Below, piece after piece: positions 3,802-14,184 of a DNA stretch of 64,000 nt. The translations under genes and the position numbers were made by a program. Source of the stretch: Candidatus Taylorbacteria bacterium RIFCSPHIGHO2_12_FULL_45_16 (GTDB taxonomy: Bacteria > Patescibacteriota > Minisyncoccia > Phycocordibacterales > PALSA-1337); NCBI GenBank assembly GCA_001821055.1, contig MHRT01000006.1, positions 8,572 through 72,571 of the forward strand, given 5' to 3'. Every line of letters starts with the position of its first letter. The first letter of the stretch is position 1. The notes beneath the pieces are model-generated. The model was not told the DNA's origin, ran no database searches, and saw only the letters and a list, made by a program, of their open reading frames with translations.

Positions 3802-4896
3802 TTATTTCACCTGAACCGGCTTGATCTCTCCATTCTCCACCATATTGATGACTATCGGCTGAATCCTGACTCCCACTTCATCAAATGAAATCGGACCAGA
3901 TACGCCTTCAGTGTTCACATTCTCGATCCCATCAATCCATTTTTTGTCATCAGAATCATAATTTTCTACCAGCACGTTGAATATGTCATACCCAAAATCT
4001 GCAATAAATCCTGGTTCTGCTCCATATTTTTGCTTGAATGCTTCTTGAAAATCATCAGCTTTACCTGATTTGAGCCAAAGAGAACGCGCGCCATTCAACC
4101 TATTCGTATCACCAAGTATCCTTTTATAATCAGCAAAGCCGGTCTGGAGTTGAGCATCAAAGCCAAAAAATGGTGGCGTCTGATCAATAGTCAATATTTC
4201 CTTAACGGCAATTGCACCATTTTCCGGAGAGGTCAAGAACACCACAGCATCATAATTTTCAGCCGATATTTTTATTGCATAGTCACGAAGATCCGCTCTT
4301 TCACTCACAATGAATGGAGTAAATCCACCCTCATAACCATCGCTGAATGCATTGAAGAAGCTCAAGCCACCGGCAGTATTGTCGTAAATGACAGCTACTT
4401 TTTTAAACTGGTAATTATCTTCTAGATACTGTGCAAATTGTATAATCGGCGCTTCGCCAGAAGGACTCATCTGGAAGATGTTGTCATTCGCTACCCCCAC
4501 AGTTTGTATGCCAAGTTGCATGACCGGAATTCCATCCTTAATCATATCAGTGTGAATAGCATCAATGACCGGTGTTGAAAGCATCATGATTGCGTCGACT
4601 TTGTCGAAATCCATGAGCTTCCTGTAGGCACTCACGCCCTTTTTGGTTTCAAATCCATCATCTTCGATAACCATTCGTATCGAAATGTCGGGATTACTTT
4701 TTCTATATTGGTCAAGGGCAAGTTCAACACCTTTCTGGTAGTTCTGTCCGGCAACTGCATATTCTCCTGACAACGGGAGCATCAAACCAAGCGTCAGTTC
4801 CCCTGGCAGGCGTGAGACATTCCTGAAGACAATAGATATGGCAATAACGATCAATACAGCCACTGATATCCAGATTAGTTTTGTTTTATTTTTCAT
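3802..4896 (-). CDS. ABC transporter substrate-binding protein, LivK-like family paralog, TM-anchored
   Basis: MKNKTKLIWISVAVLIVIAISIV anchor; PBP type I-like body (LGLMLPLSGEYAVAGQ). Confidence 0.75.
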   Translation of the reverse strand: MKNKTKLIWISVAVLIVIAISIVFRNVSRLPGELTLGLMLPLSGEYAVAGQNYQKGVELALDQYRKSNPDISIRMVIEDDGFETKKGVSAYRKLMDFDKVDAIMMLSTPVIDAIHTDMIKDGIPVMQLGIQTVGVANDNIFQMSPSGEAPIIQFAQYLEDNYQFKKVAVIYDNTAGGLSFFNAFSDGYEGGFTPFIVSERADLRDYAIKISAENYDAVVFLTSPENGAIAVKEILTIDQTPPFFGFDAQLQTGFADYKRILGDTNRLNGARSLWLKSGKADDFQEAFKQKYGAEPGFIADFGYDIFNVLVENYDSDDKKWIDGIENVNTEGVSGPISFDEVGVRIQPIVINMVENGEIKPVQVK

Positions 4897-5046
4897 ATAC
4901 CTATCTTATTATTAAATCTGCGATAATAATGATATCAGAAAATACTAAATCATACCAAATTTAAACAATGTACCGTATTCACCTTGTATTATATAAAGAT
5001 TCTAAGAATTCTTGACGAATTTTTCGACAAGGAGTAATATGTACAC

Positions 5047-5874
5047 ATGTATATTGGAACAAAAGCGGCGGCCTTGCTAGGTCTTACCCCAAGCGACGTA
5101 ACTATACTTAAGGCGATTTCCTCCAAGGAATCAGCCATACCTGACATAGCCTCAAGGACCGGTGTACCTCGCACTTCCCTGTACTACATGCTGTCAACAT
5201 TAGAAAGGCGTTCACTTGTCTCGAATTATGAACGTCGAGGTAAAAAATATTGGAAAACCTCATCAGTCGAGGAATTGCGTACGAGATACACCTCCCTATT
5301 TAATGGATTTGATAGTCTTAAAGACGATAGAATCGTGAAGGAAATGTCTCGGGAGACAACAGTGACGTTTTATCGTGGAAATTCCAATGTTATCAATGTG
5401 TTAAGAGAGATATCAGACCTGCCACTAAAAAGTAGATTCTATGGCATCCAACCAGAGGCTTCTATCATTCAAGCGGTCACAAGAAATGACATAAAAGAAA
5501 TAATCCGCTTCAATCGGAAGATAAATTCTAAAAAGTTGATAGTAGAAGGTATCATTCATGAGAAAGGAACTGATTCCATGATTAAAGTCTTGCCTACGAG
5601 AATCGGAATAGAACTCTTAAAAAGTTTCTCAAATCGCTCTGCCGACACAGTCAAACTACCAGATAATTATTTAAACAAAACAAAATCAGAGATATATCTT
5701 TACAATAACAAAATCGCCATCGTTAATTGGTCGGAAGAATTCGCAGTTATTATACAAAATAAAGATGTCTTCGATCTACTCAAAGAAATGTTCAACTCGA
5801 CCAAATATCTTCTCGAGAGATACGATCAGAACGAAAAGATCGCCAGAAAACTTGTGGACTTCGGCAGTGTCTAA
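5047..5874 (+). CDS. Winged-helix transcriptional regulator-like protein (TrmB/MarR-like N-terminal HTH)
   Basis: N-terminal segment LTPSDVTILKAISSKESAIPDIASRTGVPRTSLYYMLSTLERRSLV resembles TrmB-type wHTH; TTGACG-N17-TAATAT promoter-like site upstream (approx 5003-5031). Confidence 0.5.
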   Translation: MYIGTKAAALLGLTPSDVTILKAISSKESAIPDIASRTGVPRTSLYYMLSTLERRSLVSNYERRGKKYWKTSSVEELRTRYTSLFNGFDSLKDDRIVKEMSRETTVTFYRGNSNVINVLREISDLPLKSRFYGIQPEASIIQAVTRNDIKEIIRFNRKINSKKLIVEGIIHEKGTDSMIKVLPTRIGIELLKSFSNRSADTVKLPDNYLNKTKSEIYLYNNKIAIVNWSEEFAVIIQNKDVFDLLKEMFNSTKYLLERYDQNEKIARKLVDFGSV

Positions 5875-5877
5875 GCA

Positions 5878-6630
5878 CTACTCCCCCAAATACGCCTCAA
5901 TAACGTCTTTGCGCGCCAGCACCTCGCTCGGCTTCCCTTCTGCCAATAGCTGACCGGCATCCAGCACATAGAGATGATCGGACAATTCGCGGATCAGGTC
6001 CATGTTGTGCTCGATCAGCACCACCGTCTTGCCGTGCTCGCGTAATTCCTTCATCACTGCCACCACCGTCTTCGTCATTTCCGGAAAAAGTCCGGCGAAC
6101 GGCTCGTCGAAGAAGACAATCTCGATATCACCGACGCCACCATGGACAATGGCCAGCACTCGGGCGATCTCCAGAAGTTTACGCTGGCCATAAGAGAGGT
6201 TCTTGGCCAGCTCATTGCGCTTGTCCCAAAGACCAACTTTCCGGAGCACTTCCTCGGCCTTCTCCAAATGAAAGGCTGTGTGCCTCTCGAACAGCGACCG
6301 CCAGATGCTCCGCTCCGTCAGGACCACCAGGATATTATCCAGAACCGGCATCTGTTCGAACAAGCGGACATCTTGGAATGTGCGAGTTATGCCATAGAAC
6401 GGGACTTCGTAGGCTCTAATACGGGTTAGTTTTTCTGCGCCAGCAATGATGACTTCTCCGCCATCGATCTCGTGCATGCCAGTGAGGACATTGACCAGTG
6501 TTGATTTGCCCGAGCCGTTCGGCCCGATGATCGAGGTGATCTTGCCTGACTCAAAGGAAATCGAAAGTTTGTTGACGGCATAGACTCCGTCGAAGTGCTT
6601 GGTCAGGTTGTGGGTGGTAAGGAGGGGCAT
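5878..6630 (-). CDS. livG: Branched-chain amino acid ABC transporter ATP-binding protein (LivG-like)
   Basis: GPNGSGKST Walker A, LSYGQRKLLEIARVLA signature, FFDEPFAG Walker B, LivG-type N-terminal extension. Confidence 0.85.
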   Translation of the reverse strand: MPLLTTHNLTKHFDGVYAVNKLSISFESGKITSIIGPNGSGKSTLVNVLTGMHEIDGGEVIIAGAEKLTRIRAYEVPFYGITRTFQDVRLFEQMPVLDNILVVLTERSIWRSLFERHTAFHLEKAEEVLRKVGLWDKRNELAKNLSYGQRKLLEIARVLAIVHGGVGDIEIVFFDEPFAGLFPEMTKTVVAVMKELREHGKTVVLIEHNMDLIRELSDHLYVLDAGQLLAEGKPSEVLARKDVIEAYLGE

Positions 6631-6636
6631 GGATTT

Positions 6637-7326
6637 TTATGCCAGATTAATCAGGCTTTTTGTGATACGTTGAACTTCTTTTCTGAAAAATTCCTTTACT
6701 ACCTTCCAGCTTACTTCGAAGTAAATTTCTGGGGTAGGATCATCTTCGGCATCCTCAAAATAGACAAGGCTTTTGAGGACATGGCTGGGGTTTTGTTTGA
6801 CTGAATATTGGAGTTGCGCGGACTCAATACTCTTCATGAGGTCTTGAACGTGGAGAGAAATCCAGTAGAGGTCGATGAAATCGCGTTTTTTGCCGCGTTG
6901 ACATATTGCCACGATTTTCATGGCGGCGATGTCCTCAGGTCTGACCAGAGAAACAGTTCCGATCTTTAAAAACGGCTTGGAAAAAGTGACGAACGGATAG
7001 GCGATCAAGCTTATTTTAGCTCCATCAATTTCCCCGAATATCGTCCCTGGACTAAGTGAGGTTGTTTTCCATGCCCCAAGCATACTCAATGTCTCTTCAG
7101 CTTTTTTTTCGTCAAAAGATTTCTCGGTGGTGAAAAAATCAAGATCTACGGACTTGCAATGTCCGACTTGCAGTGCAAGCGCTGTTCCCCCAGCCAAATA
7201 CCATCCGCCTGTTGAAAAAAATTGAAAGGTAATGCATTTCAAAAATGCCTTCTGCGTGACATCAGGCAGAGCACTCAAATGCAATCCATCTAAAACTAGT
7301 TGATCTATGTTAGGAGAAGCGTCCAT
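6637..7326 (-). CDS. Nucleotidyltransferase, AbiEii/DUF1814-like (type IV TA / abortive infection toxin family)
   Basis: Motifs YLAGGTALALQVGHCKSVDLDFF and KIVAICQRGKKRDFIDLYWI match the AbiEii NTase fold signature; 6 bp upstream of livG stop, overlaps upstream small ORF by 22 nt. Confidence 0.6.
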   Translation of the reverse strand: MDASPNIDQLVLDGLHLSALPDVTQKAFLKCITFQFFSTGGWYLAGGTALALQVGHCKSVDLDFFTTEKSFDEKKAEETLSMLGAWKTTSLSPGTIFGEIDGAKISLIAYPFVTFSKPFLKIGTVSLVRPEDIAAMKIVAICQRGKKRDFIDLYWISLHVQDLMKSIESAQLQYSVKQNPSHVLKSLVYFEDAEDDPTPEIYFEVSWKVVKEFFRKEVQRITKSLINLA

Positions 7327-7529
7327 AATGCTTTTGATTTAGGGGCGACTTGGCTTCGGGGTAAATCCATAACCTGTCTGATCTCTTCTTTTGGATAGGT
7401 TTTGAAAAGCCAGCCAACCTCATCAAGTTGTCCAAAATCCAAAATCCGTTCAATGATGTATCGAGCATTTTTCTTGATATCAATATTGTCCGGATTGGTA
7501 TCCCAGAACAGCGATTGCCTGAATTTCAT
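7305..7529 (-). CDS. Small protein (74 aa), putative cognate partner/antitoxin of the AbiEii-like nucleotidyltransferase
   Basis: Overlaps NTase start by 22 nt (translational coupling geometry); conserved-looking LFWD...ARYIIERILDFG segment; far shorter than canonical AbiEi. Confidence 0.4.
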   Translation of the reverse strand: MKFRQSLFWDTNPDNIDIKKNARYIIERILDFGQLDEVGWLFKTYPKEEIRQVMDLPRSQVAPKSKALWTLLLT

Positions 7530-7588
7530 GCCTATATTATAGCATATTTCAGCTCCAAAATCACCGAAAATGGCAAGTAATTGTCCGC

Positions 7589-8239
7589 TTATTCATCCTC
7601 TAGAAGCGGTGGATATTGTTCAGGACCAACGCCTCGCTGATCAATAACTTTCGGAAGATAGTCCATCTCATCGACCCGCTTGGAGGCGCGGCGACCAATA
7701 TATTTAAAACTGAATTCATGGCTGTCTCCAAAGTCGAATACAAAATTAAGTCTGGGATAAGCAACGTAGTCCAGCTCCGCAATCCGAACCATATTAGTGT
7801 GATATGTCGGATATTGGTCGTTATCGAAACCCCTGGAACCTATAGAGTAAGGCGAGTATGAATGCCGAAATACTTTGCCATTCCTGATCTCTGGAAAATA
7901 GAAAGCGTGCAAATGATCATTATCCCAACCCATTGATTCTATTATCCCCTTGGCCAGATCCCCGAATGTCTGACTGCCTTCAATTTCAAATTCGCGCCAA
8001 ACCGGCTTTTTCCAAAGATAATCAACGCGGAATTTGAATACGTCTTGATAAAACGGTTCTTTCTTCTCAAAGACTCCGCTCATGTATTTTTTATAATCTT
8101 CATATTCCTTGATGATCCCCTTCAAGGCCTCAACATGCCTCTTCTCGGCGATTGCCTGATTGATCGTCTTGTAAAAAGACTTTTCGCCTTGGATCGGTGG
8201 GATGTGTCTGGTCAGGTTTTTTGTAGATAATGCAGGCAT
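7589..8239 (-). CDS. pRiA4b ORF-3-like family protein
   Basis: VWREFEIEGSQTFGDLAKGIIESMGWDNDHLHAFYF matches the hallmark W-R-x-I-E-V...L-H-x-x-I-x-x-x-F-G-W-x-x-x-H-L-H-x-F motif of PF07929. Confidence 0.6.
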   Translation of the reverse strand: MPALSTKNLTRHIPPIQGEKSFYKTINQAIAEKRHVEALKGIIKEYEDYKKYMSGVFEKKEPFYQDVFKFRVDYLWKKPVWREFEIEGSQTFGDLAKGIIESMGWDNDHLHAFYFPEIRNGKVFRHSYSPYSIGSRGFDNDQYPTYHTNMVRIAELDYVAYPRLNFVFDFGDSHEFSFKYIGRRASKRVDEMDYLPKVIDQRGVGPEQYPPLLEDE

Positions 8240-8240
8240 A

Positions 8241-9353
8241 TTATTTTAATGATTCAATCTTACTTACCTTGCCACCATTTAGTTGGAATACAGCTAGTGG
8301 AAGATGGCTACGACCATCTGAAGAAATAGTGAGTTTTCCAGACGTTCCTTGATACTCCTTAAAATCTTTCATAGCTTCTAATATCTCTTTTTGGTCCGTG
8401 CTCTTTTTCAGGAATGAGAACAATATGTTGGCGGAGTCATATGATTGACCGGCTGGCATCCCTGGTGCTACTCCAAATTTATCGGTAAATTTTTTGATAA
8501 AATCAGTTGCATAATAATCCGGAGCAATAAATTGTAGACCCTCCGTCCATTGAGAAGTCTCACCTGCTAAATAATCATCAACTTCAATACCATAAAGTTT
8601 TCCTTTGAAACCCAGATTGTGGACCTCTTTGCTCGAATTAACGAATTGATAATAGGTTCCGAAATAAATAGCTTCAGGTTTCGTCGCTAAAACCTTTGTG
8701 ACAGGCAACTTCATATCTGAAGCTGATGGCTGCACAACTTCAACATCGGTCACGTTGCCTCCTAGTGCCTTAAATTTATCGACAAAAGCATTAGTAACAG
8801 TTTGCTCCCAAGCATCCAATGTTCCAATTACCCCTACCTTGCGAATACCTTGATTGTAGACATATTCTGCTAGTTGGCCTGACTCGCTTTCGGCATCAGT
8901 CCAAATAAGAACTGGGTTGCTTAGATTTGTACGATTCTGCACAGGAAGAAACCCAGGTGCAATTGAAGGGATTTGGGTTTGTTCAATCAAAGGAATAACT
9001 GACGCGGTTTCTGTTTGATTTAAAGGTCCAATAATAGCAGTTACTTTTTCAATTCCTGTAGCGTGTTGAAAGACAGAAACTGTACGCTTTGGATCGCTAG
9101 CAGTATCTTCATAAATCATCTGGATTTGTCTGCCATTAATTCCTCCTGCGTTATTAATTTCTTCAGTAGCAAGCTCAATTCCTTTCTTAGCATTTTCTCC
9201 CCATGCGGAAGCACCCCCAGTAAGACTGAGGAGTGAAGCGACTTTTATTGGTTCTGTGGATGTCGGAGTAGTACTTGGTGATTTGCTCGAGACTGCCCAG
9301 ATGATGAGAATGACGACGATAATGGCCATGATCACTCCGATTGTTTTTTTCAT
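8241..9353 (-). CDS. ABC transporter substrate-binding protein, LivK-like family paralog, TM-anchored
   Basis: Likely start MKKTIGVIMAIIVVILIIW (ATG at 9353; the longer tracked ORF starts upstream without SBP-like sequence); PBP type I-like body. Confidence 0.75.
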   Translation of the reverse strand: MKKTIGVIMAIIVVILIIWAVSSKSPSTTPTSTEPIKVASLLSLTGGASAWGENAKKGIELATEEINNAGGINGRQIQMIYEDTASDPKRTVSVFQHATGIEKVTAIIGPLNQTETASVIPLIEQTQIPSIAPGFLPVQNRTNLSNPVLIWTDAESESGQLAEYVYNQGIRKVGVIGTLDAWEQTVTNAFVDKFKALGGNVTDVEVVQPSASDMKLPVTKVLATKPEAIYFGTYYQFVNSSKEVHNLGFKGKLYGIEVDDYLAGETSQWTEGLQFIAPDYYATDFIKKFTDKFGVAPGMPAGQSYDSANILFSFLKKSTDQKEILEAMKDFKEYQGTSGKLTISSDGRSHLPLAVFQLNGGKVSKIESLK

Positions 9354-9471
9354 GGAATAAGCTGGCTTAAGGTATTCCTTGATTAATGAGAAAAGTATAG
9401 CAATATTGCGGAAAAATGCTACTGGGGTGGCGTGACGTTTCCTTTTGTCTAAATTCCTGTAAAATAGCAAG

Positions 9472-10572
9472 ATGGATAGAAAGAAAAAACCAGATAATCA
9501 AATAGCTTTTTACCAGGCACCAGATGGTGCTGTAAACATTGAAGTTCTCTATGCTGAAGAGAATATTTGGCTTACCCAGAAAAGAATGGCAGAACTTTTT
9601 GATTGCTCACCAGACAATATCTCGCTTCATCTGAAAAACATTTATTCTGAAGATGAACTCGAGCAAGACGCAACTACCGAGGAATTCTCGGTAGTTCAAA
9701 AGGAGGGTAATCGCGAGGTAAACAGAAAAAACTTATTCTATAGTCTTGAAGCAATAATTGCCGTGGGTTATCGAGTCAATTCAGAAAGAGGCACTCAATT
9801 TCGTCAATGGGCGACCGGTATTCTTAAGAGCTATATCCATAAAGGTTTTGCACTTGATAACGATCGTTTGAAATATGGTTCTCGTTTTAGCGCACGTTAT
9901 TTCGATGAATTGTACGAAGAAATTCGTGACATTCGTACGAGTGAGCGTAGATTGTATCAAAAAGTCACCGATATTTATGCTACATCCATCGATTATTCGC
10001 CAAAAGCCTTTGAAACGAAGGAATTTTTTGCCACTGTTCAAAATAAACTCCATTTTGCCATTACTGGGAAAACTGCAGCTGAAATTGTTTCAGAACGAGT
10101 CAGCAGTAAAAAAGATTATCTGGGGCTTACCTCATGGCGACGATCACCGAGTGGAAAAATCATGCCGAGTGATGTTGTTATTGCAAAAAATTACCTGAAT
10201 ACAAAAGAGTTAGCTGATCTTAATCGGATCGTAAATATGTACCTTGACTATGCAGAAATGCAAGCGGCTCGTGGCAAGGTTATGTATATGAAGGACTGGA
10301 TTCTCAAGCTCAATACTTTCTTGAAATTTAGTGAGCATGACTTGCTTACAAATCCTGGGAAGGTAAGTCACCAAGTAGCTGAAAATCTAGCACTTGGTGA
10401 ATACGAACAATACAGGAAGGTACAAGATAAAAATTACATTTCAGATTTTGATAATGAAGTAAATAAACTACTAGATGTAAAAAATAAACCAAAGAAAAAG
10501 AAGGCGCAGAAAACTCGCCCCCAGTCGAAATGCGGGCGGCGGGCTTCGATTGAAATAGGAACGAGTCCTTGA
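9472..10572 (+). CDS. RhuM family protein (virulence/defence-island associated)
   Basis: N-terminal IAFYQAPDGAVNIEVLYAEENIWLTQKRMAELFDCSPDNISLHLKNIY and RGTQFRQWATGILKSYIHKGFALDNDRLKYG are diagnostic of RhuM family. Confidence 0.75.
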   Translation: MDRKKKPDNQIAFYQAPDGAVNIEVLYAEENIWLTQKRMAELFDCSPDNISLHLKNIYSEDELEQDATTEEFSVVQKEGNREVNRKNLFYSLEAIIAVGYRVNSERGTQFRQWATGILKSYIHKGFALDNDRLKYGSRFSARYFDELYEEIRDIRTSERRLYQKVTDIYATSIDYSPKAFETKEFFATVQNKLHFAITGKTAAEIVSERVSSKKDYLGLTSWRRSPSGKIMPSDVVIAKNYLNTKELADLNRIVNMYLDYAEMQAARGKVMYMKDWILKLNTFLKFSEHDLLTNPGKVSHQVAENLALGEYEQYRKVQDKNYISDFDNEVNKLLDVKNKPKKKKAQKTRPQSKCGRRASIEIGTSP

Positions 10573-10653
10573 CTTTTTGAATTAAATCAAATAGTGTTAT
10601 CTCTAACTGGCAAGAAAGAACTAAACAAAAAAGAATCGTCTCAAGATTCAACA

Positions 10654-10680
10654 AAATCCGCTTTGGAGCGGATTTTTGTT
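10654..10680. terminator. Bidirectional rho-independent terminator between RhuM and livM
   Basis: aaatccgc-tttgga-gcggattt hairpin followed by T-run; A-run on other side. Confidence 0.6.
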
Positions 10681-10697
10681 TTATGAGTAAGAAACTC

Positions 10698-11564
10698 CTA
10701 CAACCTATACTCCCCCACCAAACCCTGCGGCCGATAGAGCATCAGAACTATCAAAATAACTCCATAAACAACTTGCCTCATCTGTGCCGCCACATCCGAA
10801 GGAAAACCGACAAAGCGCAGGATCTCCGGCAATAGTATGAGACAAACCGCGCCCAGAACTGCTCCCTTATTATTCGCCAGACCGCCGAGAATGACGATAG
10901 CCAGCAGGAAGATGGATTCATTCAAAGTGAATGTCGATGGATCGATGAAGGTGATATAGCTAGCGAACAATGCGCCGGCCACCGAGGCCATGACCGCGCC
11001 GATGACAAAAATGGCCAGCTTGTACCAGAGCGTGTGATAGCCGAAAACACAGATGGCTTCTTCATCTTCACGGATGGCTTTGAGAACCCGGCCGAACGAC
11101 GAGCGAGTGACATAGACGCAGACGCCGTAAACTAGAAGACCAAGCAAAAAAGCAAGAAGCAAAAAGGAAAGGTTATCGGAAAACGTAAACCCAAATATAG
11201 ACGGTCGTGGAATCCCGGGGATGCCGAGCGGTCCGCGGGTCAAATCCTGCCAATTGAGAAAGACGCTGTAGATGATGACATTGAAACCGAAGGATCCGAG
11301 AGCGTAATAGTCATCCTTGAATTTTGACAGGACAAAACCGATGGCCAAACTCAAGACGGCGGTGATGATCATCCCCAGAATGAGCGCCAGAAAGAAATTC
11401 ATCCCCGTAGTCGTGAGCAATATGGCAGTCACATAAGCACCGATGCCATAGAAAGCGGCCTGGGTGATCGAAAGCAATCCGGCATAACCGACAATGAGGT
11501 TCAATGACAACCCGAGAATGCCGTAGATGCAGATGAGGATGACTAGGTGGATGAGGTATTCCAT
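10698..11564 (-). CDS. livM: Branched-chain amino acid ABC transporter permease (LivM-like)
   Basis: 8-10 TM helices, LivM-type motifs (GYAGLLSITQAAFYGIGAY...), sits with livH/livG/livF. Confidence 0.8.
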   Translation of the reverse strand: MEYLIHLVILICIYGILGLSLNLIVGYAGLLSITQAAFYGIGAYVTAILLTTTGMNFFLALILGMIITAVLSLAIGFVLSKFKDDYYALGSFGFNVIIYSVFLNWQDLTRGPLGIPGIPRPSIFGFTFSDNLSFLLLAFLLGLLVYGVCVYVTRSSFGRVLKAIREDEEAICVFGYHTLWYKLAIFVIGAVMASVAGALFASYITFIDPSTFTLNESIFLLAIVILGGLANNKGAVLGAVCLILLPEILRFVGFPSDVAAQMRQVVYGVILIVLMLYRPQGLVGEYRL

Positions 11565-11600
11565 GGGAGTGAATGAGAGGAATGAAAAGAATAAGAAGAA

Positions 11601-11990
11601 TTAAGAATTAGGAACAAGTGTCTTTGATTTTCTAATTAAACCAATCAGCAACTGGTGGGCTATCACAATCTGTCGAGCGATTTCGTTGAATAGTTTTCTG
11701 TCGGTATATCCAATATCCTTGCAAACAAGCAATTGATTTTCAAGCTCAATCAAGGATCCTTGAGCCTGATAATAAAACTGGACTTTTTCTTTATAACTTT
11801 TTCTGCCAAATCCTTCCGCAATATTTGATGTTACTGATACGGCCGCGCGCTGCATCTGACTGGTCAATCCAAATAATTCAGACTTTGGAAAATTCTTTGT
11901 CATTTTATAAATAGCAACGACAAATTTGTGGGCTTCCTGCCAAGCCTTTATATCCGTAAATCTCGTAATTTTCTGTGTTGTGTTGTTCAT
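11601..11990 (-). CDS. Four-helix-bundle protein (23S rRNA intervening-sequence protein family, TIGR02436)
   Basis: IKAWQEAHKFVVAIYKMTKNFPKSELFGLTSQMQRAAVSVTSNIAEGFGR matches the family signature closely. Confidence 0.75.
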   Translation of the reverse strand: MNNTTQKITRFTDIKAWQEAHKFVVAIYKMTKNFPKSELFGLTSQMQRAAVSVTSNIAEGFGRKSYKEKVQFYYQAQGSLIELENQLLVCKDIGYTDRKLFNEIARQIVIAHQLLIGLIRKSKTLVPNS

Positions 11991-12057
11991 AATTCTTCTG
12001 ATTCACAATTCTTTTCATTCTTTTTTATTCCTCTCATTCTTTTCTTATTCCTCTTAT

Positions 12058-12924
12058 TCACCTCTTCAAAATCCCCTGTGGCCGCCACAGCAAGAAAATG
12101 ATCAGCACCCCGAACGCTATGGCATCCTTCCATTCTCCGGAGATCTTCCAGATACCGAAGTTCTCGACGAAACCGAGGAAGAATGCCCCGAGGACGCCTC
12201 CGTAGATGTTCCCGATGCCGCCGATGATGGAAGCGATCACGCCTTTCAATAGGAGCGACATGCCCATGGTCGGCTCGATGCCGGTGTCGAAGCCGATCAG
12301 GATGCCGGCCAGACCGGCGATGGCTGAGCCGATGAAGAAGATCCAACCGATAATCTTCGGCGTATTGATCCCAACAATCTTGGAGACTTCTTCGTCATCG
12401 CCCACGGCTTTGACGGCTTTGCCGAAGATGGTGAACTTGAGGATGAGAGCCATGCCTGCCATGATGACCAGGCCGCAGATGAGGATGATGAGCTGAACTT
12501 CGGTGATGACTCCGCCGAGGATATCATAGACCTTTCCCGCTCCGGCGCTCTGGGTCAGGGTCTGGAATTGGCTGGTGAAGAGGATGGCTATGAGCGCCTG
12601 AACCGCCGTGAATGCGCCCAAGGATCCGACCAGGAGCACCATGCCCGAAGATTTGCGGGCGCGCAATGGCGAGTAGACGAATTTGTAGAGCAAAAAGCCG
12701 ATAATGCCGGCGATGAGGATGCCGAGCAGAATGGAAATGTAGAGGTTGAGGCTGAGAGTCTTGTAGAAATAAAAGACGGCATATCCTCCGACGGCCGTCA
12801 GCGCCCCGTAGCCCAGGTCGAAGAATTTGACCGTGCCGTAAATGAGGTTGAACCCCAGCGCGACCATGGTATAGATCGCTCCGGCGATGATGCTGTTGAC
12901 TATCAGTTGAGGGATGATGTCCAT
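12058..12924 (-). CDS. livH: Branched-chain amino acid ABC transporter permease (LivH-like)
   Basis: Probable start MDIIPQLIVNSIIAG; LivH-type TM topology and motifs (GINTPKIIGWIFFIGSAIAGLAG). Confidence 0.8.
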   Translation of the reverse strand: MDIIPQLIVNSIIAGAIYTMVALGFNLIYGTVKFFDLGYGALTAVGGYAVFYFYKTLSLNLYISILLGILIAGIIGFLLYKFVYSPLRARKSSGMVLLVGSLGAFTAVQALIAILFTSQFQTLTQSAGAGKVYDILGGVITEVQLIILICGLVIMAGMALILKFTIFGKAVKAVGDDEEVSKIVGINTPKIIGWIFFIGSAIAGLAGILIGFDTGIEPTMGMSLLLKGVIASIIGGIGNIYGGVLGAFFLGFVENFGIWKISGEWKDAIAFGVLIIFLLWRPQGILKR

Positions 12925-13050
12925 GGCTGTGGCTCTATACGCCGGATCCGCACTCAATGTTGCGCTATAAATATATACCAAAACCCGCTCTGTGGCGAGC
13001 GGGCTAGTGGAGTTGCGATTGACAAGATAGCTCTACAGCCTTAATAGATT

Positions 13051-14184
13051 CTATTGCACTACTTCAATTTTACCATTCTTGACTATTTTTACTGTATAGT
13101 CGGCTGTCTTAGGATCACCATTGCTGTCAAAACTAATTTCTTTTGAAGAGACACCTCCAGCATAAACAGTCTTATAGAGTTCATCCTTGATCGCCGTTGG
13201 TTCTACGCCAGCATTTTTTAATACTTGAGCTAAAATATGAACTCCATCGTAAGCGGTCGGGGTACATACTGCTATTTCATCCGTACCAACCTTAGTCTTC
13301 ATTGCTGTCTTGAAAATTTCACTTGGGCTTGAAGAAGGAACAGTAAAATATATACCTTCAGCTGCACTACCGGCATCAGTGATGATTTGCTGATCATCCC
13401 ATGCGTCTCCTCCAAACATCGAAACTTTGTATTTCAAGTCTGCAAGCTGCTTTAGAGCAGGAACAGTTTGTCCAGCATATCCTAGGAAATAGATGACATC
13501 TGGATTGGCCACCTTAATCTTAGAAAGCTGCGACCTAAAATCTTTATTCGTCTCCTGAAATCCTTCAGACGCCACAACAGTCCCGCCCAGTTCAACAAAT
13601 TTCTTTGAGAAAGTTTCGTTCAGGCCAATACCCCAATCTGTTTGAATATATAGAATAGCAACTTTTGATTTGTTGAGTTTGTTCTTAATATAATCAGCAG
13701 CGAACACCCCCTGGAAATTATCAGATGGATAATTTCTAAAGATATAGTCCCCCGCATTGGTGATTGCCGCAGCCGAAGAACAGTACGACAATACGACGGT
13801 CTTACTCTGTTCAGCCAAGCCGGTAAAAGCTGAAGTCTCCCCAGAACATGCTCCACCGAACACAACTGGAACTTTGTCTACATTTATGAGTTTTTGCGCA
13901 GCCGCTGCCGCATCTTTACTCGTACACTTTCCATCTTCATAAATAATCTCGAGCGGTCTACCATTTATTCCCCCGTCTGCATTAACTTCACTGAGAGCAA
14001 TCTCTATTGCTGCCTTGGCATTCTGACCAACATTGGCCGCATTACCCGTGAGCGGCCCGATGAACCCAATCTTGATCGGCTCACTCGACGTCGGTGCACC
14101 TCCCTTCTTCGTGGCCGCTGAAATTCCCCAGATGATGAGAATGATGACGATCAAACCGACTATAATTTTTGCTGTTTTGGACAT
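13051..14184 (-). CDS. ABC transporter substrate-binding protein, LivK-like, TM-anchored (first gene of the locus)
   Basis: MSKTAKIIVGLIVIILIIWGI anchor; KIGFIGPLTGNAANVG PBP type I signature. Confidence 0.8.
   Translation of the reverse strand: MSKTAKIIVGLIVIILIIWGISAATKKGGAPTSSEPIKIGFIGPLTGNAANVGQNAKAAIEIALSEVNADGGINGRPLEIIYEDGKCTSKDAAAAAQKLINVDKVPVVFGGACSGETSAFTGLAEQSKTVVLSYCSSAAAITNAGDYIFRNYPSDNFQGVFAADYIKNKLNKSKVAILYIQTDWGIGLNETFSKKFVELGGTVVASEGFQETNKDFRSQLSKIKVANPDVIYFLGYAGQTVPALKQLADLKYKVSMFGGDAWDDQQIITDAGSAAEGIYFTVPSSSPSEIFKTAMKTKVGTDEIAVCTPTAYDGVHILAQVLKNAGVEPTAIKDELYKTVYAGGVSSKEISFDSNGDPKTADYTVKIVKNGKIEVVQ

Follow-up and report, generated by a model that had tools for sequence, protein, structure and literature searches.

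A two-gene cassette on the minus strand of a 64,000-nt stretch of Candidatus Taylorbacteria DNA (contig MHRT01000006.1; hereafter the window, to which all coordinates refer) is probably an autonomous toxin-antitoxin (TA) unit of the MenAT/AbiE class, located at positions 6637-7544. It couples a nucleotidyltransferase (NTase) of 229 amino acids (aa), belonging to a known toxin family, DUF1814/AbiEii, with a 74-aa protein of an undescribed partner family, DUF6922, behind a distinctive promoter of leaderless type, and as found here it is almost entirely confined to Patescibacteria. Its gene order, its conserved domains, fold and motifs, and its promoter-like element are plain in the data, as is the absence of a link to the PF07929 gene next to it. 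A first-pass annotation made from the bare sequence had drawn the unit wider, as a three-gene module that included this PF07929 (pRiA4b ORF-3-like) gene; the three open reading frames (ORFs) that it described are present, on the minus strand, as are the overlap of 22 nt and the 6 bp that separate the NTase from a livG-like gene, and the pair of DUF6922 and NTase stood while the membership of PF07929 did not.

The NTase matches PF08843 (AbiEii) over residues 37-201 (E 1.2e-15, 58.5 bits, against a curated cut-off of 22.5), and its AlphaFold (AF2) model, with a pLDDT of 93.5, has as its closest Foldseek neighbors in the Protein Data Bank (PDB) MenT4 (6y56, E 6.6e-7), then JHP933 (4o8s and 4ok0), MenT3 (8xhr) and MenT1 (8an5 and 8an4), with CCA-adding enzymes following; the MenT4, JHP933, MenT3 and MenT1 matches all have a probability of 1.00 and TM-scores of 0.43-0.58. 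The earlier assignment to AbiEii/DUF1814 is borne out by these matches, and the GGTAL and K..A...R...RD motifs that had been read in the protein are indeed there (A45-G46-G47-T-A-L and K137..A140...R144...R148-D149). In 201 aligned NTase sequences, G46, D61 and D63 are each kept in 199, G47 is essentially invariant, K137 and R144 are found in 200, and R148, D149 and D152 in every one. That the 229-aa protein is a DUF1814/AbiEii-family NTase with intact catalytic aspartates, D61 and D63, is supported.

The conserved residues agree with those needed for activity in characterized toxins. AbiEii requires G49, R63, D67, D69, K173, R180 and D192 (PMC3985639), MenT1 requires T39, D41, K137 and D152 (PMC11375011), and motifs I-IV of the window NTase lie in the same register as those of AbiEii, the R63-S-T65-x-D67-x-D69 stretch of the latter corresponding to (C57)-K-S59-V-D61-L-D63. 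The same arrangement is seen in MenT1 (T39-x-D41), where a Ser or Thr likewise stands two residues ahead of the catalytic Asp and a conserved Lys and Asp follow later (PMC11375011), and in MenT3 (R76-x-S78-x-D80), which has Arg where the window NTase has Cys57. Because the register and the key residues match those of AbiEii, MenT1 and MenT3, the NTase family appears capable of catalysis and subject to regulation of the MenT kind. Antitoxin-induced auto-phosphorylation falls on a Ser or Thr of motif II in AbiEii (T65), MenT1 and MenT3 (bioRxiv 10.64898/2026.01.19.700257; PMC11375011). Ser59, which is kept in all 201 sequences and in the model occupies the loop leading into strand 62-66, is by motif register the predicted equivalent of that position, that is, of T39 in MenT1, S78 in MenT3 and T65 in AbiEii. 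At four loci a second and far more divergent NTase-like ORF adjoins the cassette (matching the family profile with E 9e-8 to 5e-19; Table 1), which suggests tandem NTase modules of different subfamilies at these places.

The 74-aa ORF, left unnamed in the first-pass annotation, belongs to PF21956 (DUF6922), matching positions 1-51 of the 52 in the profile with E 1.4e-19 and 69.8 bits (cut-off 27). A word-indexed search returned 299 homologues, and an exhaustive one, at E<=1e-3, gave 2244 cluster representatives that are almost without exception 60-170 aa long, so that the ORF is a real gene rather than a chance reading frame. Its AF2 model (pLDDT 89) has four helices and no strands; being all-helical, the protein is not a winged helix, in agreement with the earlier remark that the partner of the NTase lacks the winged helix-turn-helix (wHTH) of AbiEi. 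Homology to AbiEi or MenA was rejected, as nothing of the kind was matched in Pfam, PADLOC, NCBIfam, PDB sequences or PDB folds; the DUF6922 profile matched no antitoxin in the PDB, the chains of 8an5, which contains MenA1, being included, and the model had no significant structural neighbor among PDB folds (Foldseek) or viral models (BFVD). NCBIfam likewise gave nothing for the NTase, the PF07929 protein or the DUF6922 protein (for the last at a cut-off of E<=0.1), and PADLOC nothing for the latter two (for DUF6922 at the same cut-off). A PUF/Pumilio-like repeat was considered for DUF6922 and rejected as a chance helix-turn motif, the summed weak profile matches reaching E 0.004 with single repeats insignificant, hhalign giving a probability of 5.8% over 20 columns and Foldseek E 8.8. 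Some relatives are extended at the N terminus, in one case clearly by an HTH_17/MerR domain (E 2.7e-12) and in others, more weakly, by HTH_11/DeoR. Where such extended, distant DUF6922 proteins could be placed on contigs, three of four are followed by an overlapping NTase of the same family. In being small, upstream and translationally coupled, with relatives sometimes bearing a fused DNA-binding domain, DUF6922 fits the description of an antitoxin.

The pairing of the two genes was examined at 80 independent genome loci bearing NTase homologues of 44-74% identity, mostly from metagenome-assembled genomes (MAGs) labelled as Patescibacteria, which were searched with profiles built from the three proteins of the window. 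At all 80 the NTase is immediately preceded by a DUF6922 ORF in the same orientation, so the small ORF that had been proposed as a partner is conserved beside its NTase throughout. The two genes overlap by 22 nt at 50 of the 80 loci, by 28 nt at 10, by 25 nt at 7 and by 4 nt at 7. In the window the codons for Leu68 and Trp69 in the C-terminal helix of DUF6922 (TTA TGG) contain the ATG of the NTase, the start codon being placed likewise at the 50 loci with the 22-nt overlap, and L68 and W69 are invariant in a 29-sequence alignment (A2); the exact 22-nt overlap and part of this invariance may reflect a dual-coding constraint. From locus to locus, pairwise identity in one of the two proteins is correlated with that in the other (r=0.67; Mantel test, 0 of 999 permutations; 78 pairs), and the mean identity of the cassette proteins across Patescibacteria lineages is 53-56%. 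Distribution of the NTase is patchy: in 185,579 species genomes, 330 stretches match. The nearest database protein, 99% identical, is from Candidatus Taylorbacteria (Patescibacteria), and many metagenome contigs carry the same locus, the exact NTase protein being found in 35 indexed blocks and on at least 24 contigs. Eight of the MAGs (L024, L037, L039, L041, L056, L058, L070 and L077) bear the label of Gammaproteobacteria, Bdellovibrionales, Chlamydiae or Planctomycetota, yet the cassette proteins in them resemble those of Patescibacteria, with 44-56% identity to the query, which may reflect mis-binning, mislabelled records or horizontal transfer.

The cassette appears to carry its own promoter. 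An extended -10 element, TGcTATAAT, and a further 6 nt (7544-7530) can be read directly upstream of the DUF6922 ATG, and because this element abuts the start codon a leaderless or near-leaderless mRNA is predicted. A generic -35/-10 scan misses the element because it requires a -35 hexamer, which is lacking here. Among the 80 loci, a -10 hexamer with at least 5 of 6 matches precedes the in-frame DUF6922 start by 4-8 nt at 59, at exactly 6 nt in 44 of them, and the hexamer is accompanied by the TG extension at 56. When flanking genes were put through the same permissive procedure the hexamer was found at 34 of 142 (24%) and its TG-extended form at 13 of 142 (9%); random ATGs have the hexamer in 3.5% of cases. 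The cassette would accordingly be transcribed from its own extended -10 promoter into a leaderless mRNA. Flanks of the cassette loci are mostly housekeeping genes and differ from locus to locus, 148 flanking ORFs falling into 125 clusters; a conserved third partner was rejected, as no Pfam family was present more than twice among 101 flanking proteins. The cassette has a GC content of 0.41-0.45, against about 0.54 in the adjacent livG, and no second copy of it was found in the window. A promoter-like element of its own, variable flanks and a GC lower than that of livG give the cassette an accessory, mobile character. Table 1 lists the features discussed.

Table 1. Features of the cassette and its surroundings (positions are those of the window unless a locus is named)
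Feature	Position	Strand	Remarks
NTase ORF	6637-7326	minus	229 aa; DUF1814, AbiEii/MenT type; proposed toxin
Motif II codons C57-K58-S59-V60-D61-L62-D63 of the NTase	7138-7158	minus	catalytic DxD, candidate phospho-acceptor Ser59, Cys57
DUF6922 ORF	7305-7529	minus	74 aa; proposed antitoxin/regulator of the NTase
DUF6922/NTase gene overlap	7305-7326	minus	22 nt
Extended -10 element TGcTATAAT	7536-7544	minus	ends 6 nt ahead of the DUF6922 ATG (7529)
PF07929 ORF	7589-8239	minus	216 aa; neighbor outside the cassette
livG-like ABC ATPase	5878-6630	minus	250 aa; follows the cassette after 6 nt; shown for context
Peripla_BP_6 binding-protein gene	8241-9470		stop 1 nt before the start of the PF07929 ORF
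liv-type ABC transporter cluster	3802-14184		contains interspersed accessory genes
IclR/TrmB-type HTH protein gene	5047-5874	plus	275 aa
RhuM-family protein gene	9472-10572	plus	366 aa
bAvd-like ORF	11601-11990	minus	129 aa
Divergent second NTase-like ORFs	L030 2236-2529; L059 5132-5755; L066 7103-7699; L071 1530-1940		family profile search
PF07929 loci with AAA_14/DUF4143 or Fic/DOC neighbors	L086/L087 6744-8030; L088 4710-5996; L099, L101, L127, L140-L143, L146, L162

By homology with MenT1, MenT3, MenT4 and AbiEii, the NTase would add nucleotides to the 3' acceptor ends of tRNA and so block aminoacylation and translation, and DUF6922 would be its dedicated, translationally coupled partner, most probably an antitoxin; toxicity, the tRNA target and neutralization by DUF6922 are all expectations drawn from knowledge of the family. 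Since it is a 74-aa protein with no DNA-binding domain, DUF6922 most likely acts post-translationally, and it may bind the NTase as the 7.4-kDa MenA1 binds its toxin. In doing so it might also induce the NTase to phosphorylate itself on the invariant Ser59, which stands two positions ahead of the catalytic Asp61. The pair would be transcribed from its own promoter and inserted between ordinary genes, in this instance inside a liv-type ABC transporter operon. The route through Ser59 phosphorylation, together with the attenuation by Cys57 considered below, are the more speculative steps of this scheme. DUF1814 toxins (MenT and AbiEii) are a current model of NTase shut-off by partner-induced auto-phosphorylation. 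The label of a type IV system given in the first-pass annotation is outdated, as AbiE and MenAT are now understood to work by antitoxin-induced auto-phosphorylation of the toxin and are classed as type VII, or as mixed II/VII for MenAT1 (PMC11375011; bioRxiv 10.64898/2026.01.19.700257).

Among the closest known systems is MenAT1 of Mycobacterium tuberculosis (Rv0078A/Rv0078B), in which a DUF1814 NTase toxin is likewise paired with a very small helical protein. MenA1 (7.4 kDa), the analogue of DUF6922 that has been studied best, has neither a winged helix nor a C-terminal antitoxicity domain, and this minimal helical partner, devoid of kinase motifs, sequesters MenT1 and induces its auto-phosphorylation (PMC11375011). 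The structural neighbors of the NTase model include MenT1 as well. However, DUF6922 has no detectable similarity to MenA1 in sequence or fold in PDB searches that included 8an5, the window NTase, at 229 aa, exceeds the 184-195 residues of the MenT1 chains and has nearer structural neighbors in MenT4 and JHP933, and the cassette, known here from sequence and models, differs in its Patescibacteria host and its extended -10 promoter of leaderless type. AbiE of Streptococcus agalactiae and Lactococcus lactis shares with the cassette a PF08843 toxin and a bicistronic arrangement of overlapping genes with the partner upstream (PMC3985639), but differs in that the partner in the window is not an AbiEi of COG5340, being of 74 aa with neither winged helix nor C-terminal domain, in that the promoter region has no inverted repeats, and in that the motif II Arg is replaced by Cys. 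The cassette thus departs from AbiE in its antitoxin (wHTH/COG5340) and from MenAT1 in the homology of its partner. JHP933, from the Helicobacter pylori plasticity zone, is the second-best structural match (E 5e-6) and the only PDB sequence touched by the NTase family profile, in the G..S.DLDF and R.K.RD..DL stretches, at a non-significant E of 0.41; we know of no DUF6922-type partner for it. MM3350/pRiA4b ORF-3 (PF07929, 2i1s) resembles only the upstream 216-aa neighbor.

To our knowledge just two partner types of DUF1814 toxins have been studied so far, and TA biology is essentially unstudied in Patescibacteria. The cassette links this toxin family to a third, uncharacterized partner family with 2244 cluster representatives, whose small members lend themselves to direct biochemical testing of the minimal-partner idea, and it would represent a compact, self-promoted TA cassette scattered through the reduced genomes of Patescibacteria. 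The finding is useful, and it will not surprise specialists, since variable antitoxins are the norm for a given toxin family. A bolder form of the proposal, which we regard as possible and on balance somewhat unlikely, would make DUF6922 a third, structurally unrelated class of DUF1814-toxin regulator, after the AbiEi/MenA3 type and MenA1, neutralizing the toxin by forcing auto-phosphorylation of Ser59, with the Taylorbacteria copy a naturally attenuated Arg-to-Cys toxin whose leaderless promoter has been co-opted in the liv operon. If this were true, the model in which any minimal binding partner can trigger auto-phosphorylation would extend to a large family centered on Patescibacteria.

Several observations weigh against the TA interpretation and are best considered together. 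Neither the sequence nor the predicted fold of DUF6922 is like that of any known antitoxin, and it is gene architecture that argues for its antitoxin role; no paper mentioning DUF6922 was found in the literature (nor any mentioning PF07929). The fourth of the extended DUF6922 relatives placed on contigs has a tandem double domain and precedes an integrase-family gene in place of an NTase. PADLOC models of AbiEii match the NTase partially and weakly, the best at 2e-9. No inverted repeats were found upstream of DUF6922 (7480-7640), and hence no sign of autoregulation. Strong conservation and housekeeping neighbors would also fit a non-toxic cellular function, and with Cys57 the window copy may be no working toxin at all. 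The integrase-associated relative, P0326 (JGI sample 3300075153, on a contig of 3300 nt), has 186 aa and two tandem DUF6922 domains, with a 4-nt overlap before the Phage_integrase-family gene; because of it, DUF6922 may have partners besides NTases.

The objection from Cys57 leads to the alternative that survives best, namely that the pair is a disarmed remnant in which the R57C change inactivated the toxin, and which persists harmlessly or for the sake of a promoter now helping livG expression. Position 57 is Arg in 199 of the 201 NTase sequences and Cys (TGC, 7156-7158) in the window copy and otherwise only in P0001, a 99%-identical twin, so that an Arg four residues ahead of the first Asp of motif II is a feature of the family that the window copy lacks; neither this change nor the leaderless-type promoter had been noted in the first-pass annotation. 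In AbiEii the R63A mutant is non-toxic (PMC3985639), and the residues equivalent to position 57 coordinate the gamma-phosphate of the nucleoside triphosphate (NTP) in homologues (bioRxiv 10.64898/2026.01.19.700257; PMC11375011). As replacement of the equivalent Arg63 by Ala abolishes toxicity in AbiEii, the window toxin may be attenuated or inactive, and the copy is in any event a ready-made natural R57C variant at a residue essential in AbiEii. Proximity to livG is in keeping with a remnant kept for its promoter: the NTase stop (6637-6639) and the livG-like ATG (6628-6630) are separated by only 6 nt, and no terminator-like site was found in 5700-9700, hence none between cassette and livG, so that read-through is possible. 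On the other hand, both ORFs are full-length with all other conserved residues intact, presence of the exact protein on at least 24 contigs implies an allele that is stable in nature, and Cys is not Ala, so that residual activity is possible; a single substitution, too, gives no age for the change. Disarmament in this copy is a real possibility, though less likely than not.

A second alternative concerns the role of the cassette, which might be abortive-infection defense against phage, as for lactococcal AbiE, rather than stabilization of a genome or island or stress-induced growth arrest. The toxin matches both the Pfam and the PADLOC AbiEii models, AbiE systems confer phage resistance (PMC3985639), and a RhuM/PDC-S05 candidate defense gene lies 2 kb away. 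Against this, cassette neighborhoods consist of housekeeping genes and not of defense islands, and MenAT homologues have been tied to growth control rather than defense (PMC11541572). Carriage by phage was rejected as well, no relatives being found on IMG/VR viral contigs, no PHROG matches and no significant BFVD neighbor. A defensive role is judged unlikely.

The main rival to the TA interpretation as such is a benign two-subunit enzyme, in which DUF6922 would be a positive cofactor or specificity subunit of an NTase engaged in modification or repair of RNA 3' ends. The high conservation across many Patescibacteria lineages, the housekeeping neighbors, the likeness of the NTase fold to CCA-adding enzymes and the unlikeness of DUF6922 to known antitoxins would all suit such an enzyme, as would one apparent DUF6922-NTase fusion, P0374, although its junction, where out-of-frame-looking sequence replaces the last DUF6922 helix, may be a frameshift and the fusion was not used as evidence. 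Patchy distribution with completely variable flanks, a promoter of its own and a GC content below that of its neighbors are less readily reconciled with a benign enzyme; moreover, a small overlapping upstream gene is the typical TA order, the fusion of HTH domains to some DUF6922 members is often seen in antitoxins, and all characterized DUF1814 enzymes are growth-inhibiting toxins (PMC7450476, PMC3985639). A benign enzyme is on these grounds considered improbable, and the TA cassette is preferred.

The 216-aa upstream protein is a genuine PF07929 member (E 2.4e-15, 57.1 bits, cut-off 26.6; E 8e-5 against PDB 2i1s), so that the profile searches confirm both domain assignments of the first-pass annotation, PF08843 and PF07929, with AbiEi models remaining unmatched. 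The co-occurrence check that it proposed gave no support in either direction to a link between PF07929 and the NTase: PF07929 was absent within 6 kb to either side of the NTase and DUF6922 at all 80 loci, including those of the closest NTase relatives (L004 and L005, 72-74% identity), and neither DUF6922 nor this NTase was found within 5 kb to either side of PF07929 homologues at 80 metagenome loci. Because co-occurrence is absent in both reciprocal tests, the unit consists of two genes, and the upstream PF07929 gene is an unrelated accessory neighbor that should not be annotated as a component of this system. A single three-gene defense or addiction module, although the genes are adjacent on one strand, 59 nt apart with no terminator between, and although PF07929 homologues tend to sit among accessory genes, is made highly improbable by these counts and by the promoter-like element of the cassette, which separates PF07929 from DUF6922.

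Three PF07929 homologues inspected one by one stand in unrelated contexts, and the neighbors of the family are varied accessory genes (AAA_14/DUF4143 ATPases, Fic, PIF1-type helicases and Bro-N). PF07929 recurrently adjoins genes for AAA_14/DUF4143 ATPases (9 of 124 neighbors) or Fic/DOC proteins (9 of 124), counts that are inflated because some of the contigs are near-duplicates.

The surroundings of the cassette are of some interest in their own right. The 250-aa ATPase downstream matches ABC_tran and the branched-chain C-terminal domain BCA_ABC_TP_C in Pfam, and is called livG-like on account of the latter. The liv-type transporter cluster is interrupted by several unrelated accessory genes whose GC content, 0.35-0.45, falls below the 0.50-0.56 of the liv ATPase and permease genes. 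Besides the TA cassette and PF07929 these are one TrmB/IclR-like HTH gene, one RhuM gene and one bAvd-like gene, and it looks as if small selfish or accessory genes had landed in the liv operon repeatedly. The RhuM-family gene (PF13310, E 2.5e-105) lies antisense between permease and binding-protein genes, and its product also matches the PADLOC candidate defense family PDC-S05 (E 1.5e-143). The 129-aa ORF is placed between two permease genes in a region of local GC of about 0.37-0.39; in the identical locus L001 it is annotated as 23S_rRNA_IVP with a weak bAvd match, pointing to a four-helix-bundle protein. Finally, the low-GC gene for the 275-aa protein with an N-terminal IclR/TrmB-type HTH is antisense, with livG on one side and the next binding-protein gene on the other, and in PADLOC the protein has weak matches, with E of 8e-7 to 1e-4, to CARF/Csa3/CasR regulators over their HTH portion.

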